Under the pieces are notes generated by a model. It had not been told where the DNA came from. It searched no databases and saw nothing but the letters and a program-made list of their open reading frames with translations. The position numbers and the translations under genes are program-made. This document shows positions 8,245 through 14,367 of a stretch of 14,367 nt of DNA, piece after piece. How positions within the stretch are numbered: the stretch's first letter is position 1; every line of letters begins with the position of its first letter. The stretch comes from a virus (lineage: Duplodnaviria; Heunggongvirae; Uroviricota; Caudoviricetes): IMG/VR virus record IMGVR_UViG_2654587792_000011. One strand, 5' to 3'.

Positions 8245-8465
8245 GCCACACCTCCCAGACGCTTAAACATTTTTCCAGACAGAAATACCGCCAGAGGGTA
8301 ACTGATGGTGTAGCTACGCCCCTGTAGTTCGCACACGACTTTCTGGCTTTCAGCGTTGACTAGGCAAACCCGCAGAACGTGACCGTTGCTGGTGGCGAAC
8401 CACTGCCCCACACGGGGGCAACGGTTGTATCGGTGATACAGGGAATTAACGATGTGGCGGATCAT
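8241..8465 (-). CDS. Hypothetical phage protein
   Basis: 74-aa ORF with 4-nt overlaps to both neighbours. Confidence 0.4.
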   Translation of the reverse strand: MIRHIVNSLYHRYNRCPRVGQWFATSNGHVLRVCLVNAESQKVVCELQGRSYTISYPLAVFLSGKMFKRLGGVA

Positions 8466-8656
8466 GGACGCACCTCCGCCGTAGTTACGTATTTAACCGG
8501 GCTACCTTTCATTGAGATGGTTTCACACATCTCTGCCGCTTTCAGTTCCGCTGTTTTTCTGGATTTATAGCGACGGTGCCAGACAGATACATCCGTGCAA
8601 ACTGATACATCGTTTCTGTATTCCGTAGTGGAGATGATGATTTCGTAACTAATCAT
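8462..8656 (-). CDS. Hypothetical phage protein
   Basis: 64-aa ORF with 4-nt overlaps to both neighbours. Confidence 0.4.
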   Translation of the reverse strand: MISYEIIISTTEYRNDVSVCTDVSVWHRRYKSRKTAELKAAEMCETISMKGSPVKYVTTAEVRP

Positions 8657-9204
8657 GGGCGAACCTCCTTGTCAGAACCATTCAGCCTGGAATCAACAAG
8701 TGCAGCGCCAAAAACAGCATCACCAACACGGTCGTACAGTTTGCTAGCCAGCGGAGATTCAACGGCCTTAAGCATTGGATAAAGCTGGCTTGTCCAGATT
8801 TGATGGATTTCACGCAAATGCAGGTATACGCCTCTGGCGTTTCGTGCGACAGCTGACATATCAACCGCGTCAGCACCAGATAAATTCTTCTCCATCTGGT
8901 TAAAGGCGTTGATGTATGCCTCTTTGAACCGGGCTGCACGTTTGCCAGTAAAGCCCATAGCAAGGAACGCGAAGCCATCGCGGGTGATTTGATAGCAAGG
9001 TAGTTTGCGGCCTGTGCAATCGGTGTAATCACTGGGCTGAAAATTCAGCTCAGTGAATTCAACAGAGCACTCAAGCGTCTGGATTTTTTGAATAACGTTT
9101 TTGTGCTGCTTGCAGAAATATTCGGCAACGGCCAAAGAAGAGGTAACAGCCTTCCCATGGATAACATCAATTTTAGGGTGAGTTTGGGTAGGGGTGGTTG
9201 CCAT
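8653..9204 (-). CDS. Phage regulatory protein, Rha family
   Basis: N-terminus MATTPTQTHPKIDVIHGKAVTSSLAVAEYFCKQHKNVIQKI matches the Rha N-terminal signature. Start taken at the internal ATG 9202-9204 (GAGGA SD upstream), because the 9501 start would read through a terminator and a repeat-rich region. Confidence 0.65.
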   Translation of the reverse strand: MATTPTQTHPKIDVIHGKAVTSSLAVAEYFCKQHKNVIQKIQTLECSVEFTELNFQPSDYTDCTGRKLPCYQITRDGFAFLAMGFTGKRAARFKEAYINAFNQMEKNLSGADAVDMSAVARNARGVYLHLREIHQIWTSQLYPMLKAVESPLASKLYDRVGDAVFGAALVDSRLNGSDKEVRP

Positions 9205-9367
9205 AGTGACATCCTCATGTGCGAATTTTGAAAACTCACCACATGGGACGCCAATCACAGAGGTGGTGAGACGTACAGGGTTGGCGTAACCGGTCGCACA
9301 TGACCCCGGCGCATCTTTCGATGCCCCTGCACGCCCCACCATAATTTGGATGTGAGGAAACGTGCGC

Positions 9368-9389
9368 AAAAAAACCGCTGAAGCGCGGT
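9368..9389 (-). terminator. Intrinsic terminator inside the early-right operon (tR1-like)
   Basis: On the minus strand: stem ACCGC/GCGGU with 6-nt loop, followed by a U-run (complement of A368-A373 on plus). Confidence 0.45.
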
Positions 9390-9488
9390 TATGCGCATGT
9401 GCGAATTTCAGGACGCCAATCCCGGCACCCGCTTTATAAGGTGCGGAGACAGTGTAACGTCCCGAAATTGCAGAATCAATATTTGGTC

Positions 9489-9518
9489 TTGAAATGATCA
9501 TATAGCTGCTGATATCTT
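9489..9518 (+). promoter_or_regulatory. Candidate sigma70 promoter for a short plus-strand antisense RNA
   Basis: TTGAAA (9489-9494), 18-nt spacer, TG-extended TATCTT (9513-9518). Confidence 0.3.
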
Positions 9519-9524
9519 TAGAAC

Positions 9525-9610
9525 TGTTCTTGGATGTTTCGGAGCCGTTTTATGCGAAACAGCTCCCCGTTATTGATGTTGAGTGAGCCGGGTTACTCCC
9601 GGCTTTTTTT
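9525..9610 (+). ncRNA. Candidate OOP-like antisense small RNA, about 85 nt
   Basis: Runs from the predicted start after the 9489-9518 promoter to the intrinsic terminator at 9587-9610. Antisense to the 3' UTR of the minus-strand gene 9610-10317. No plus-strand ORF. Confidence 0.3.
9587..9610 (+). terminator. Intrinsic terminator on the plus strand
   Basis: Stem GCCGGG (9587-9592) / CCCGGC (9598-9603), loop TTACT, then seven T (9604-9610). Abuts the stop codon of the convergent minus-strand gene. Confidence 0.55.
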
Positions 9611-10317
9611 CATCGCTGCCAACCAATAACCTGAAATAACCCCATTTTCGGGTGATACCAGCGAGTCCCTCGCGGTTCTGCTTCCTCCATAACCCGATAA
9701 AAAGCAGCCATAAACGGTTCCACAGCAACAATTGCGCGACGTGACAACAATCCGTCCGGCGTCATGAACTCATGTGTGTCTGTAGGAATTTGATAGGCGT
9801 TCACCAGATTGCGGCATTTATCATCTGACAAACCGGTTTTTGCTTTCAGTTGGCGATATCCGGCATAGCCCTCACGAATAGTGCCCTTTTTAATTTGCTC
9901 GACTGTTTCAGCAACGTGGCTGACTTTTTCTTCCACCTGAGTGATCCGTTTCTGTTGGCGAACGGCTTCAAGAGCCATCGCGGCAACCATTTCGATTTCG
10001 CTCATTGGCTTACGGATCTGTTCTTCCAGTTCGCGCCAGCGATCTACCAGGCGAGCTGTGAATTCAGGACAGAGCTGTGCGACGACAATGATGCTGTCGC
10101 GCTTACCTCGTTCACCTTCGAATACATACGCGCTAGAAAATCGGCGAGGCCCAAGTGATTGTTTATTCTCAATTTCCACAGTCTGTGGAAATTGGATGAT
10201 TCCCTTTTTAGCCAGTGTTTCAATAGTTCTCTTAACACTATCTGGTCGGCTTCCCACCAGCTCTGCGATCTCAACGCTGGTCATGGATGCTTTGCCGTTA
10301 AAAATTGCGGTGTTCAT
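9610..10317 (-). CDS. Phage regulatory protein with Rha/antirepressor-like N-terminal HTH, in the cII position
   Basis: 235 aa. N-terminal MTSVEIAELVGSRPDSVKRTIETLAKKG resembles Rha/KilA-type phage regulator N-termini. Overlaps the cro-like gene by 4 nt. Not CII-like in size or sequence. Confidence 0.45.
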   Translation of the reverse strand: MNTAIFNGKASMTSVEIAELVGSRPDSVKRTIETLAKKGIIQFPQTVEIENKQSLGPRRFSSAYVFEGERGKRDSIIVVAQLCPEFTARLVDRWRELEEQIRKPMSEIEMVAAMALEAVRQQKRITQVEEKVSHVAETVEQIKKGTIREGYAGYRQLKAKTGLSDDKCRNLVNAYQIPTDTHEFMTPDGLLSRRAIVAVEPFMAAFYRVMEEAEPRGTRWYHPKMGLFQVIGWQR

Positions 10318-10604
10318 TGTTTATCTCCTGCGTGTATTCCATCCGCTCTGTGTGGTGAACTTGGATTTAGGCTTTTGCGTAACAAGTTAGGAATTCCATC
10401 TTCAGGGTGAGGATAAAGATCTGGCCTTAAGCCATGAGGCGTAACCTTCCATGCAACTACTTCACATACTCGTAAAACGAAACGAGCAGGAATTGTGCTT
10501 TTTGAAAACCACTGATTCACCGCTTGCGGCGTCACACCAAGATTTCGCGCTATGGCATTTTGCGCAATTAATGCACGAAGTTTGTCGTAATCATTTCCTT
10601 CCAT
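10314..10604 (-). CDS. Cro-like HTH regulator (Cro/YdaS type)
   Basis: 96 aa with HTH LGVTPQAVNQWFSK, divergent from the CI repressor gene across a 130-bp operator-like region. Confidence 0.6.
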   Translation of the reverse strand: MEGNDYDKLRALIAQNAIARNLGVTPQAVNQWFSKSTIPARFVLRVCEVVAWKVTPHGLRPDLYPHPEDGIPNLLRKSLNPSSPHRADGIHAGDKQ

Positions 10605-10737
10605 AACAAAGCACCAATATTAACTTTATAAATCAAGAATACATCAAGTTTAAATTAACATGCAAATTACAAAAGGATCGAATACACTAAAATCAAGTAA
10701 AGATTTATCCTTGTAAAGAAACCCACAGGATTTGGTC
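10605..10737. promoter_or_regulatory. Divergent promoter/operator region between the cro-like and cI genes (oR/pR/pRM-like)
   Basis: AT-rich. ATCAAG occurs three times (10632, 10643, 10692) and GTAAAGA twice (10697, 10713). Individual operators are not resolved. Confidence 0.5.
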
Positions 10738-11427
10738 ATGAAGAACGTCAAAAACACGGAAAATCGAATAGCCGCGATGCTGAAAGCAAAAGGATGGACT
10801 CAGGCTCAACTGGCCCGCAAGTTAGGTGTGAGTGCGCAATCAGTGCAGTACTGGACAACAGGAAAAACATTTCCACGGAGTGATAAGCTCGCGCATTTAT
10901 CAGAGATTAGCGGTTATCCACAATCCTGGTTCTTAGGTGAAGACTCCTCACCAACCTTTTCCTCGCAAGAGAAACACCAGACAAGAACAGATAGCGTCGT
11001 ATTTAATGTCCTTGATGTTGAGTTTAGTTGCGGTGATGGAACTCATGTCCGTGGTGACTTGATAGATGTAGTGCGCTCAATAGAACTTGATCCTGAATAT
11101 GCCCGACGTCTTGTTGGAAATCGGGCATTCAAAAATATAGAAATAGGTAACGCCAGAGGAGACAGTATGGCTCCCACAATCTCACCTGGCGACCTTCTTT
11201 TTCTTGATAAGACAGTAACTTATTTTGATGGCGATGGTATTTATGCATTTTGTTTTGATGGAGAATGCTACGTGAAAAGGCTTCAAAAAATTGGAAGCAA
11301 AATCATGGTGTTATCTGATAACCCCAATTATCAACCATGGAGCATCGAAAAAGAGGGGTTAGCTCTGCTTTATATCCAGTCTAAAGTGATCTCATCAGTA
11401 CCATTCAACATAAACAGATTTGGTTAG
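10738..11427 (+). CDS. cI: CI-type prophage repressor (HTH_XRE plus S24 LexA-like peptidase)
   Basis: N-terminal HTH GWTQAQLARKLGVSAQSVQYW; C-terminal peptidase motifs GDSMAPT (Ser) and YVKRL (Lys). ATG 10738 with AGGA SD is preferred over the track's TTG at 10732. Confidence 0.85.
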   Translation: MKNVKNTENRIAAMLKAKGWTQAQLARKLGVSAQSVQYWTTGKTFPRSDKLAHLSEISGYPQSWFLGEDSSPTFSSQEKHQTRTDSVVFNVLDVEFSCGDGTHVRGDLIDVVRSIELDPEYARRLVGNRAFKNIEIGNARGDSMAPTISPGDLLFLDKTVTYFDGDGIYAFCFDGECYVKRLQKIGSKIMVLSDNPNYQPWSIEKEGLALLYIQSKVISSVPFNINRFG

Positions 11428-11439
11428 TCTTTGATTTTA

Positions 11440-11461
11440 ACGGGCTTTGCCCGTTTTTTTT
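11440..11461 (+). terminator. Intrinsic terminator after cI
   Basis: Stem ACGGGC/GCCCGT with 3-nt loop (11440-11454), followed by eight T through 11461. Confidence 0.6.
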
Positions 11462-11491
11462 CTGCCTGAAATATACGATATCAATTTTTTC

Positions 11492-11543
11492 TTGACAGCC
11501 TGTTTCCCAAAACATAATATCGCACCATCAATTATAACTTGAT
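11492..11543 (+). promoter_or_regulatory. Strong sigma70 promoter with operator-like palindrome at the start site
   Basis: TTGACA (11492-11497), 17-nt spacer, TAATAT (11515-11520). Palindrome ATCAA-N7-TTGAT at 11527-11543 overlaps the predicted start. Confidence 0.55.
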
Positions 11544-11573
11544 TTGATTCAATTTAAAATTGTTGGCGGATAT

Positions 11574-12122
11574 ATGAAGACACTAAAAGCAACTCCAGAA
11601 ACAACTAATTTTATCAACTGCGGCTGTGTTACGCTTAAGGGCTTAGAACTTGATTCCTTTGCATTAAATATTGCAAATTTGCTAAGTGCTGTACGCACAT
11701 TCCATCTTCTGGATTGTGCTCGCTCAAAGGAACTGGGCATTGAGGTAATGGAATTTATCCATGAATATGCTCTATCTGCTGCTTCTCCTGCACAACAAAA
11801 ACAATCCTTCCCTGAAAGCTGGCTGGTTAACCTTCGCACCCAACGCGAAGCCTGCGGCTTAACAACCGCCGAACTCGCCAGGCTGCTCGATCTCGATGAA
11901 GAAATTATCATCCAGTGGGAGAGCGGAGAGTATGAACCAACTATCAGTATGCTTATCCCACTGGCAAATATTCTTGGCTGCGATCCGATGTGCCTGTTAA
12001 CTGGTGAGGTTACTCCTCCGGAGCAACCAAAAAGTGAGGAGCAGCAACACCATGACGCATCTCAACAAGTTTGCCCCTTATCTCGCGAAGCTCTTCTGCG
12101 GAAGAACCAATACCAATGGTGA
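11574..12122 (+). CDS. Two-domain protein: unknown N-terminal domain plus C-terminal XRE-family HTH
   Basis: Start taken at ATG 11574, because the track's TTG 11544 has no SD and lies too near the start site. HTH GLTTAELARLLDLDEEIIIQWESGE. N-terminal domain is homologous to the C-terminus of the next protein. The 3' end is uncertain because of overlapping alternative frames. Confidence 0.5.
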   Translation: MKTLKATPETTNFINCGCVTLKGLELDSFALNIANLLSAVRTFHLLDCARSKELGIEVMEFIHEYALSAASPAQQKQSFPESWLVNLRTQREACGLTTAELARLLDLDEEIIIQWESGEYEPTISMLIPLANILGCDPMCLLTGEVTPPEQPKSEEQQHHDASQQVCPLSREALLRKNQYQW

Positions 12123-12250
12123 CATAATCGCCGCTTCGCCCTTCAAGGTACATGCGAACATTTTTATCAATCATTGCGGAAACAGTCTCAATATGAAAAC
12201 ACTTCTGAGACTCGCTATATAGCAGAACATATAAGTCAGCTGAGGAAGCC

Positions 12251-12616
12251 ATGAAAAAGTTCGAAAACATAACTGTTCTCCATGTTGATGACTTTGATTA
12301 TACAAACCCGGAACTTCTCCCGGAGGTTGTAAAGGCAATGGATGTTGCCGATATAGTGATTAGAGAAAAGAGAATTGTCAAAAACAGGCTCGCATGCACT
12401 TCAGGAGCAATGACAGAAACAACCTCACAGCAAGATAATTACGAAGGCATTTGTCTGGAGCCTGATTCATTTGCGGTAAATGTTTATCATTTATTGCATG
12501 CAACACAGGTATTACATATGTCCAGTAATCACGAAACGAAAACACTCGGCAGCGAAATTCTGAGTTTTGCATGTGAGTATACAAAAGCTGCTGCCGAAAA
12601 AGAATTAGCGCAATAA
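12251..12616 (+). CDS. Hypothetical protein whose C-terminal domain is paralogous to the N-terminal domain of the 11574-12122 product
   Basis: 121 aa with good SD GAGGA (12242-12246). About 42% identity over a gapless 48-aa stretch (LEPDSFAVNVYHLL... vs LELDSFALNIANLL...). Confidence 0.55.
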   Translation: MKKFENITVLHVDDFDYTNPELLPEVVKAMDVADIVIREKRIVKNRLACTSGAMTETTSQQDNYEGICLEPDSFAVNVYHLLHATQVLHMSSNHETKTLGSEILSFACEYTKAAAEKELAQ

Positions 12617-12694
12617 CAACAAATATGCCCTGAACGTTTATTGCGGTTTTATCGCCGGGGATTGTTACAACCTTAATCCACAGGAGGCTTTATT

Positions 12695-12808
12695 GTGACT
12701 TTTATAAAGAATATGGCATCACACAAGACCGCCTGCCTTATTGCACAATACGGTGAAAATTACATGCATATTGCCTGCTTATTTCTGCGTAAAGCATACG
12801 GGAGATAA
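12695..12808 (+). CDS. Small ORF (37 aa) with strong SD, coupled to the downstream gene
   Basis: AGGAGG (12683-12688), 6-nt spacer, GTG 12695; product MTFIKNMASHKTACLIAQYGENYMHIACLFLRKAYGR; stop TAA 12806-12808 two nt before the next ATG. Too short for the ORF track. Confidence 0.3.
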   Translation: MTFIKNMASHKTACLIAQYGENYMHIACLFLRKAYGR

Positions 12809-12810
12809 TA

Positions 12811-13023
12811 ATGCATCAGAAAACAGCAGAACACGAACAAACCAGAATATTGCTGACCATCAAAAACGGGAAAGTAATATTCATTCTCCATGTTCATGAC
12901 GATGAACTTGTAGGAACTCTTTCAACATTCCTGTTTATTGCAGAAAAGGCAGGATATGACGTTATTGCACCAGCAGATGAAGATGAAGATGAAGATGAAG
13001 ATGAAGATGAAGATGAGGAATAA
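12811..13023 (+). CDS. Small protein with C-terminal (Asp-Glu)7 acidic tail
   Basis: 70 aa with SD GGGAGA (12800-12805). Hydrophobic beta-like core followed by the tail DEDEDEDEDEDEDEE. Confidence 0.55.
   Translation: MHQKTAEHEQTRILLTIKNGKVIFILHVHDDELVGTLSTFLFIAEKAGYDVIAPADEDEDEDEDEDEDEE
12976..13017 (+). repeat. In-frame hexanucleotide tandem repeat (GATGAA)6 plus GATGAG
   Basis: Seven consecutive hexamers read directly from the sequence; they encode the (DE)7 tail. Confidence 0.9.
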
Positions 13024-13028
13024 ATATC

Positions 13029-13610
13029 ATGCAATACGATGAATTCCAGGCTGAAGCAACAGCCAATGGTATACGAACTGGCAGTATGACGATTGATTAT
13101 CACGACGCCATACGTCGTCTGGATGCCGGAGAATTCGATACTCCTAATGTGCGAGGTTTACGTATCCTTCAGTGTCTGGCGCAAGCCGACGAAGCAGGAT
13201 TACTGGGTAAACTTCCGGTTGAGATGAAGGTTGCTCAGTGGCGATGGTTGTATGTGACGACATTCATCAACGAAGAAGAAGACAAGAACGGCACAATTGA
13301 TATCCTGAATGAACACGGAACAACTGAACACGCCGTGGTATATAACGGGATGTATGGGTTTATGACGATATATCCCGGCCCCATTCGATTTGCCTTACAA
13401 CAGTATATTGAATGGAATTTAATTCAAAAATACGGCGAAGCTGAAGGAATGGGAAGAGCGCTGTTTCTTTATCAGAAAATGCTCACTACTTCCCCTGATA
13501 AAGGTTTCATTCTTTCAGATATGGGTCGAGAAGGGCTTGAAATCCTTCTGGATGAAATTATTAACGAAATGAATACTCATGGCATGCAATCCGAAACAGA
13601 TATTAAGTAA
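13029..13610 (+). CDS. Hypothetical protein, no recognisable motif
   Basis: 193-aa ORF starting 5 nt after the preceding stop, with GAGGAA upstream. Confidence 0.55.
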   Translation: MQYDEFQAEATANGIRTGSMTIDYHDAIRRLDAGEFDTPNVRGLRILQCLAQADEAGLLGKLPVEMKVAQWRWLYVTTFINEEEDKNGTIDILNEHGTTEHAVVYNGMYGFMTIYPGPIRFALQQYIEWNLIQKYGEAEGMGRALFLYQKMLTTSPDKGFILSDMGREGLEILLDEIINEMNTHGMQSETDIK

Positions 13611-13620
13611 AAGGGACCAC

Positions 13621-13806
13621 ATGACCGTTATCGAGTATATCCAGGAAAATCCAGATTGCAGTAGAGAAGATATATCCCTCGCACTTGGAAGAAGCGCAAC
13701 TTCTATCAGTAATGAATTATCACGGTTATTGTGGAATGGGTTAATAGTACGAACTGGAGAAAAAAACAAAATGATTCTGTACTGCGTAAACAATCTGCCG
13801 TTTTGA
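13621..13806 (+). CDS. Small winged-helix-like protein whose stop codon is supplied by the IS terminus
   Basis: ATG 13621 with SD AAGGGA (13611-13616), 61 aa. The stop TGA 13804-13806 is the first three bases of the IS inverted repeat, so the native C-terminus may have been replaced. Confidence 0.45.
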   Translation: MTVIEYIQENPDCSREDISLALGRSATSISNELSRLLWNGLIVRTGEKNKMILYCVNNLPF

Positions 13807-13875
13807 AGTGGCACACTGAATTTGGCCACCTGAACAGAGGTGATATGCTCACCTCAGAACAACACAGGTGCTCCA

Positions 13876-14367
<492 letters not shown>

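Follow-up and report, generated by a model that had tools for sequence, protein, structure and literature searches.

Predicted left operator sites over the early-left promoter of a lambdoid prophage

The immunity region of the prophage described here contains a promoter downstream of cI that precedes the gene for an HTH protein and carries palindromes with the half-sites ATCAA and TTGAT, which are also found between cI and cro. This raises the question of which protein recognizes these sites, the phage repressor or the HTH protein encoded directly downstream. The first-pass annotation had offered both options, either CI half-sites on a pL/oL-like promoter that is repressed in the lysogen or binding by the HTH protein and hence an autoregulated cassette, and had pointed out that the two imply opposite expression states in the lysogen.

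Gene context and the two control regions

The window (the entire stretch of 14,367 bp analysed here) represents a lambdoid prophage: positions 10300-12700 are 99.5% and positions 8248-13803 97.4% identical to Escherichia phage PhiR49_2 from ECOR13, which is mentioned only as a test host by Vassallo et al. (PMC9519451). Its replication genes are located on the minus strand and come before a Roi/Rha-like gene (9610-10317, minus strand), next to which lies a cro-like gene coding for 96 amino acids (10314-10604, minus strand; Pfam YdaS_toxin, 1.4e-12, and P22_Cro, 1e-4). This gene is divergent from the repressor gene cI (10738-11427, plus strand), whose product of 229 amino acids consists of an N-terminal HTH (Pfam HTH_3, 4.9e-8) and an S24 self-cleaving peptidase domain (Pfam Peptidase_S24, 4e-17); the counterpart in PhiR49_2 is annotated as cI. 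A terminator scan revealed an intrinsic terminator behind cI (11439-11463, plus strand; 11439-11455 without the T-run), composed of AACGGGCTTTGCCCGTT and a subsequent T-run, which would stop the cI transcript ahead of the left promoter. The window type and the related locus L091 from Pseudocitrobacter share the GC hairpin of this terminator, which is missing in the types represented by Stx2a-converting phages and phage phi467 (L002, L003, and L008), in which unrelated AT-rich sequence, in some cases with extra ATCAAG copies, takes its place. The types may therefore differ in how well the left promoter is insulated from the cI transcript, and read-through from the repressor promoter pRM could express the HTH gene in lysogens carrying the types without terminator.

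The first gene behind the terminator (11574-12122, plus strand; Pfam HTH_3, 3e-10; PHROG 4836) codes for a protein of 182 amino acids with a variable N-terminal domain and a Cro/C1-type HTH (amino acids 87-145), and its ATG aligns in the relatives. It is followed by a phiP27 L08-like gene for 121 amino acids (12251-12616, plus strand; PHROG 5451, 4e-83). In PhiR49_2, all genes after cI are oriented on the same strand and continue via ea22 and eaA to xis (excisionase) and int (integrase), which places the promoter in the position of lambda pL, heading an early-left operon. Of the "cassette promoter" of the first-pass annotation, the promoter is therefore retained, while a separate cassette is not, since its supposed first gene heads this same-strand run to xis and int.

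The left promoter (11492-11520, plus strand) was recognized in a consensus scan by the hexamers TTGACA (11492-11497) and TAATAT (11515-11520), which are separated by 17 nt and match 10 of 12 consensus positions. Candidate operators were scored by their matches to the 12 defined positions of the pattern ATCAAG-N5-CTTGAT, and additionally with a position weight matrix (PWM) trained solely on sites from three other genera. The predicted operator ATCAATTATAACTTGAT (11527-11543; 11/12, the top score of the window; PWM 22.9) starts 6 nt past the -10 hexamer. A transcription start near 11527, as expected from the promoter hexamers, would place it at about +1 to +17. The presence of the palindrome ATCAA-N7-TTGAT over the predicted start, as reported in the first-pass annotation, agrees with both the direct reading of the sequence and the consensus scan, and the sequence given as following it, TTGATTCAATTTAAAATTG, was likewise read directly at 11544-11562. 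This stretch includes part of a weak third candidate site, TTCAATTTAAAATTGTT (11548-11564; 8/12; PWM 11.9), which is partly conserved and whose centre lies 21 bp, or two helical turns, downstream of that of the site at 11527-11543. A second strong site had escaped the first-pass annotation, namely the predicted operator ATCAATTTTTTCTTGAC (11480-11496; 10/12; PWM 17.7), the last five nucleotides of which (11492-11496) are identical with the first five bases of the -35 hexamer. The sigma-70 promoter is thus overlapped by the predicted operators over 5 nt of its -35 hexamer and at its predicted start site. The two strong sites, which bracket the core promoter at -35 and +1, are spaced by 47 bp or approximately 4.5 helical turns, a distance that does not obviously favour cooperative binding between them, and a middle operator at a spacing of approximately 24 bp was not seen by eye between 11480 and 11527 in the window. 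In the phi467 type, ATCAATCAAGATCTAAC is located within the spacer between the promoter hexamers.

The divergent control region between cI and cro (oR; 10605-10737) comprises 133 bp with a G+C content of 28% and contains ATCAAG on the plus strand at 10632, 10643, and 10692, consistent with the three copies counted in the first-pass annotation. Two of the three copies each provide the strong half of a 17-bp site (10643-10659 and 10692-10708), and the remaining one (10632-10637) is an orphan half-site that is missing from the corresponding stretch of L091. We infer the assignments of the promoters pR and pRM and the roles of the individual operators in this region from geometry, with lambda serving as the model. 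A plausible pR on the minus strand would consist of TTGCAT (10665-10660) and TATTCT (10641-10636) separated by 18 nt; this proposal is based on reading the sequence and on the parallel geometry with the left promoter, as the consensus scan did not settle the position of pR. A candidate pRM on the plus strand, composed of ATTACA (10666), 16 nt, and TAAAAT (10688-10693), came from a promoter scan. The weak OR1-like operator candidate ACCAATATTAACTTTAT (10613-10629; 9/12; PWM 11.9 bits) begins 6 nt past the -10 hexamer of the putative pR on the minus strand, i.e., at the same offset as at the left promoter, and its counterpart in L091, ATCAAGCTATAATTGAT, scores 11/12. The OR2-like candidate ATCAAGTTTAAATTAAC (10643-10659) is the best PWM match of the window with 25.0 bits; it is identical in L091 and L092 (the latter being another locus with an orthologous repressor) and would occupy the spacer of pR, whose proposed -10 hexamer overlaps the orphan half-site. 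The OR3-like candidate ATCAAGTAAAGATTTAT (10692-10708; 10/12; PWM 18.8) overlaps the -10 hexamer and the start of the candidate pRM.

Statistical support and conservation of the sites

Scoring of all 14,351 17-mers of the window for the pattern placed the sites at 11527 (11/12), 11480 (10/12), and 10692 (10/12) at the top, and those at 10643 and 10613 are among the nine 17-mers with a score of 9/12. The idea of half-sites common to the promoter and the cI/cro region is borne out by these values, as the three best 17-mers of the window lie in just these two regions. If one mismatch at most is allowed, ATCAA-N7-TTGAT occurs three times in the 14,367 bp (10692, 11480, and 11527), compared with an expected number of approximately 0.72. 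In contrast to the paired sites, the hexamer ATCAAG alone is not enriched window-wide (14 copies observed versus 8.9 expected); the signal consists of the clustering and the paired geometry of the half-sites. Both AT-rich intergenic regions were shuffled 20,000 times with their dinucleotide composition preserved. Downstream of cI, none of the shuffles yielded a pair of sites scoring 10/12 or better, and 6 yielded an 11/12 site. Between cI and cro, none yielded three or more ATCAAG copies, and 120 (0.6%) yielded a site scoring 10/12 or better; only this last, cross-region figure comes close to a fair test, because the pattern had been chosen after the data were seen. The PWM was run on both strands of the window (background mean -23.9 bits, standard deviation 8.1), and 12 of its 13 top matches fall on the six sites at 10613, 10643, 10692, 11480, 11527, and 11548, with a single outlier at 11374 (11.0 bits). 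This result is supportive rather than fully independent, since the training sites were picked by their similarity to the pattern.

Further evidence comes from an alignment of seven relatives, including the O103:H2 12009 prophage, Stx2a-converting phages, and phi467, whose cI genes are approximately 78-98% identical to that of the window at the DNA level. The first 50 or so nucleotides downstream of cI are unalignable between the types, and behind them the left half of the -35 operator (ATCAATTTTT), its TTGAC end, and the TTGACA hexamer are invariant in all seven relatives, as is most of the +1 operator (ATCAATT.TA..TTGATT), and the -10 hexamer is conserved. Likewise, positions 10613-10708 of the cI/cro region are almost invariant, compared with coding flanks of 78-82% identity, and divergence sets in again beyond 10708.

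These data bear on the view that the palindromes represent chance occurrences in AT-rich DNA and that the promoter is a constitutive one of the "moron" type, which would be on in the lysogen. Short AT-rich palindromes are indeed common, the region downstream of cI has a G+C content of 32%, and the missing enrichment of isolated ATCAAG would fit as well. However, the composition-matched shuffles without any pair of sites of at least 10/12, the conservation of the sites while their flanks diverge, and the perfect palindromes in other genera described below make this extremely improbable. The part of the explanation that concerns a moron promoter further suffers from the fact that the downstream genes are early-left genes. 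In a search with PADLOC for a defence or moron cassette, the matches were limited to generic HTH ones and did not include the neighbouring genes, and such a cassette was discarded as a candidate.

Two elements other than a phage-repressor operator, an RNA leader hairpin and a LexA box, were also considered and rejected. Although ATCAA and TTGAT could pair in a 5' leader, the segment 11527-11590 folds with -6.2 kcal/mol, which is no better than its shuffles (z = -0.17). As to LexA, CTGTTTCCCAAAACAT in the promoter spacer (11500-11515) matches seven of the eight core positions of CTGT-N8-ACAG, but it reads CTGT-N8-ACAT and thus lacks the CAG, and the core is not conserved in the relatives, which show CTAT...GCAT or CGCG...ACAT instead. 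The resemblance was judged to be fortuitous, and the probability of either element accounting for the palindromes may be regarded as practically negligible.

Exchange of repressors and of downstream genes

The two options of the first-pass annotation can be compared at loci in which either the repressor or the downstream gene has been exchanged. In 80 IMG/VR loci (viral contigs), the HTH domain of the downstream protein, comprising 60 amino acids, is 93-100% identical, and this conserved HTH gene is preceded by no fewer than six classes of repressors that show a distant relationship or none. The window type (41 loci) and the phiP27 type (37 loci), whose repressor shows no detectable similarity to the CI of the window, are accompanied by the phi467 type (88% identical to the window CI), the types of loci L058 (41%) and L030 (21%), and the short repressors without S24 domain of L064 and L085. 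The palindromes of the left promoter differ from class to class, and those of each class recur in the cI/cro region of the same phage: they read TTGCTAT/ATAGCAA in L030, ATCGG..CCGAT in L058, TTAGCA..TGCTAA in L064, and ATCAAT-TATA-ATTGAT together with ATCAAG-TATA-CTTGAG in L085, and the phiP27 type contains GTATCA repeats. In a 6x6 matrix of the k-mers common to the left promoter of each class and the cI/cro region of each class, the true pairing ranks first of the 720 permutations at k=6 and k=7 and within the top two at k=8. Autoregulation through an HTH that stays invariant cannot account for operators varying with cI. As the N-terminal domain of the same protein co-varies 1:1 with the repressor class, this first comparison alone still leaves a role for that domain.

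The half-sites of L085 (2208-2275 of that locus and upstream of 1722) are similar to those of the window, with a spacing of 16 bp rather than 17 bp, and are accompanied by a repressor of 161 amino acids whose recognition helix reads SMAAVSLW, compared with SAQSVQYW in the window CI. Because similar half-sites are found here despite a different helix, helix identity is not usable as evidence beyond close orthologues.

The reciprocal situation is represented by loci L091-L093 from Pseudocitrobacter faecalis, Citrobacter youngae, and an Enterobacteriaceae MAG, which contain CI orthologues with 74-79% identity. Their recognition helix is TAQSVQYW in the Pseudocitrobacter and MAG proteins, one residue off that of the window, and SAQTVVYW in the Citrobacter protein. 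The proteins encoded after these repressors (130-141 amino acids) show neither a Pfam HTH nor any BLAST similarity to the window protein. Nevertheless, the promoters of all three loci exhibit ATCAAGTTTAACTTGAC over the -35 hexamer and the perfect palindrome ATCAAGTTTAACTTGAT 47 bp later, 6 nt past the -10 hexamer, and the offsets between operators and promoter are identical to those of the window; in L091, the first operator starts at 2748, the -35 hexamer at 2760, and the second operator at 2795, with the -10 hexamer ending at 2788. Their cI/cro regions contain ATCAAGCTATAATTGAT, ATCAAGTTTAAATTAAC, and ATCAAGGTAAGCTTTAC. Since the sites are kept where the downstream gene is dissimilar, a role of the N-terminal domain is excluded at the loci of these CI orthologues.

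Both exchanges together indicate that the sites follow cI/cro and not the downstream HTH protein, and thereby support the CI-type operators on a pL/oL-like promoter proposed as the first option. Regarding the second one, small HTH regulators often regulate themselves from palindromes over their own promoter, and the 11574-12122 protein does possess a bona fide Cro/C1-type HTH and belongs to a family annotated as regulator (PHROG 4836, labelled "CII-like regulator"), which would allow it to bind the palindromes independently of CI. Against this stand the nearly identical HTH behind repressor classes with differing promoter palindromes, the persistence of the same palindromes and geometry in front of a gene without HTH domain, and the recurrence of the half-sites in the cI/cro region, which an autoregulator of a separate cassette would have no reason to target. 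An autoregulated cassette is therefore very improbable, and this option of the first-pass annotation is abandoned.

As judged from sequence evidence, the segment 11480-11564 very probably constitutes a left operator set (oL) over the early-left promoter of a lambdoid prophage. A dimer of CI would bind 17-bp sites of the consensus ATCAAG-N5-CTTGAT, and by analogy with lambda, Cro would bind the same sites. On the left side, these would comprise the strong sites over -35 and at about +1 to +17 and the weak one behind them, and the same consensus would supply the three sites of the cI/cro region. In the lysogen, occupancy by CI is predicted to stand in the way of RNA polymerase, so that the HTH gene and the remaining leftward operon would stay silent, and RecA-stimulated self-cleavage of CI via its S24 domain would derepress pL and pR together. 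The HTH gene and the leftward genes may thus be expected to be off in the lysogen and on with SOS induction. Binding, transcription start, and the repressed state of the lysogen are all to be read as predictions in this scheme.

The comparison of loci cannot separate binding of CI from that of Cro, as cI and cro travel together in all of them. A variant explanation would accordingly assign the sites to another factor of the immunity module, with Cro as the main ligand or with the N-terminal domain of the HTH protein contributing specificity either directly or via CI or Cro. It would be in line with the co-variation of cro and cI in every compared locus, including L091-L093, where the cro orthologue carries the same helix PQAVNQWF as that of the window, and with the 1:1 linkage between N-terminal type and repressor class, which holds across 86 loci. 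However, CI and Cro use the same operators in lambda, 434, and P22, so that recognition by Cro only would be unusual, and the N-terminal domain is a predicted two-helix hairpin without match to a DNA-binding fold. Considering also that the sites are kept in L091-L093 in front of genes for proteins without detectable similarity to the HTH protein, this variant appears quite unlikely.

The N-terminal domain itself shows unusual features. The AlphaFold2 model of the HTH protein, whose overall confidence is modest (mean pLDDT 67, pTM 0.38), consists of the two-helix hairpin (amino acids 21-70, pLDDT about 85) followed by a five-helix Cro/C1-type HTH. A Foldseek search against the PDB returned matches for the HTH domain only (P22 c2, 434 Cro, and C.AhdI) and none for the N-terminal domain, and a sequence search of the PDB likewise recovered HTH domain matches only. 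The N-terminal part of approximately 86 amino acids (11574-11831) is hypervariable, with six types among the analysed loci (seen in the window, L004, L030, L058, L064, and L085) and more in database homologues, while the HTH is almost invariant, and the boundary of the mosaic coincides exactly with the beginning of the HTH domain. Amino acids 24-70 (window 11643-11783) are 43% identical (E = 9e-10) to amino acids 69-115 of the protein encoded by the next gene (window 12455-12595), so that the adjacent gene encodes a paralogue of the variable helical domain; the two proteins are also linked by PHROGs 5451 and 4587. Many relatives of the HTH protein (L006, L007, L008, and L002/L005) are larger, with 230-265 amino acids and a second HTH after the first one, and those of the window and phiP27 have a single HTH and a C-terminal tail different from that of the larger proteins.

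One speculative and rather unlikely reading of this architecture is a two-part adaptor, in which the N-terminal hairpin would read its own immunity module (CI, Cro, or a site) and the invariant HTH would recognize a site shared by many phages. Such an adaptor would act as an immunity-specific switch component after derepression of pL, loosely resembling the N/nut specificity within imm21. The 1:1 linkage of the N-terminal types could equally be a passive effect of a recombination junction located at the conserved HTH-coding DNA.

Comparison with known immunity systems

A view on the lambda paradigm shows that the predicted left operator set shares its principal design with pL/oL. In both cases, a strong sigma-70 promoter follows cI and a terminator on the same strand and has pseudo-palindromic 17-bp sites overlapping it, whose consensus is that of three further sites between the divergent cI and cro. 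Both repressors combine an HTH with a self-cleaving S24 domain, and xis and int form the end of the leftward operon, as seen here in PhiR49_2. Along the 14 kb of PhiR49_2 through int, a score of at least 10/12 is reached only by the counterparts of the window sites at 10692, 11480, and 11527, and no second operator-bearing promoter was found further left. The differences concern the operator sequence, which is ATCAAG-N5-CTTGAT in the window, and the arrangement of the left sites: lambda has three adjacent operators about 24 and 20 bp apart, whereas two strong sites at the wider spacing described above and one weak site downstream are present here. Moreover, the first leftward gene codes for an HTH_3 protein instead of N, and Cro belongs to the YdaS/P22-Cro type. 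In lambda, 21, and P22, the first gene is one for an N-type antiterminator accompanied by a nutL site, which is not universal among lambdoid phages; this feature defines the lambda subtype and not oL as such.

The replacement of one immunity region by another is known from the imm21 and imm434 substitutions of lambda and agrees with the modular theory of lambdoid evolution. The exchangeable module likewise appears to be present here, consisting of cro, oR, cI, oL, and the 5' portion of the leftward operon's first gene. In imm21, the module carries its own N. In contrast to the imm21 and imm434 cases, the junction is located inside a gene, between the hypervariable N-terminal and the almost invariant HTH domain. 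The closest parallels are the L11-L10 region of phiP27 and Stx2a-converting phages (LC567818 and related ones), which show the same gene order of cro, cI, HTH protein, and L08-like gene. L10 of phiP27 has the HTH domain in common with the window, with a DNA identity of about 96-97%, but phiP27 differs by an unrelated CI and by GTATCA-type repeats in its two control regions. The Stx2a phages have cI, operators, and promoter in common with the window at about 78% identity, but their versions differ by the lack of a terminator after cI and by a second HTH domain.

A literature search with the operator strings and for PhiR49 and the repressor and operators of phiP27 did not retrieve a description of these sites. 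What would be new here, as read from the DNA, are the operator sequence, the spacing of the sites, and a first gene other than N on a pL/oL design of the lambda type. The immunity group is present in 136 of 5,426 complete E. coli genomes and in several Stx2a-converting phages, with orthologues in Citrobacter and Pseudocitrobacter. The predicted 17-bp consensus and its six candidate sites for this group may be useful for annotating immunity groups and for predicting superinfection immunity among Stx phages. Because the design is the standard one of lambda, it poses no new question by itself; the only possible exception is the variable domain, linked to immunity, that the first pL gene encodes.

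Two minor observations concern the distal part of the leftward operon in the window. An IS3-family element interrupts the operon from position 13804 onward, where the similarity to PhiR49_2 stops (last position 13803), and its orfA-like ORF (13840-14178, within 13804-14367) is recognized by Pfam HTH_Tnp_1. Further upstream, the hexamer ATGAAG is repeated five times in tandem (12977-13006) inside a small ORF (12811-13023) and would give rise to a (Met-Lys)n run if translated.
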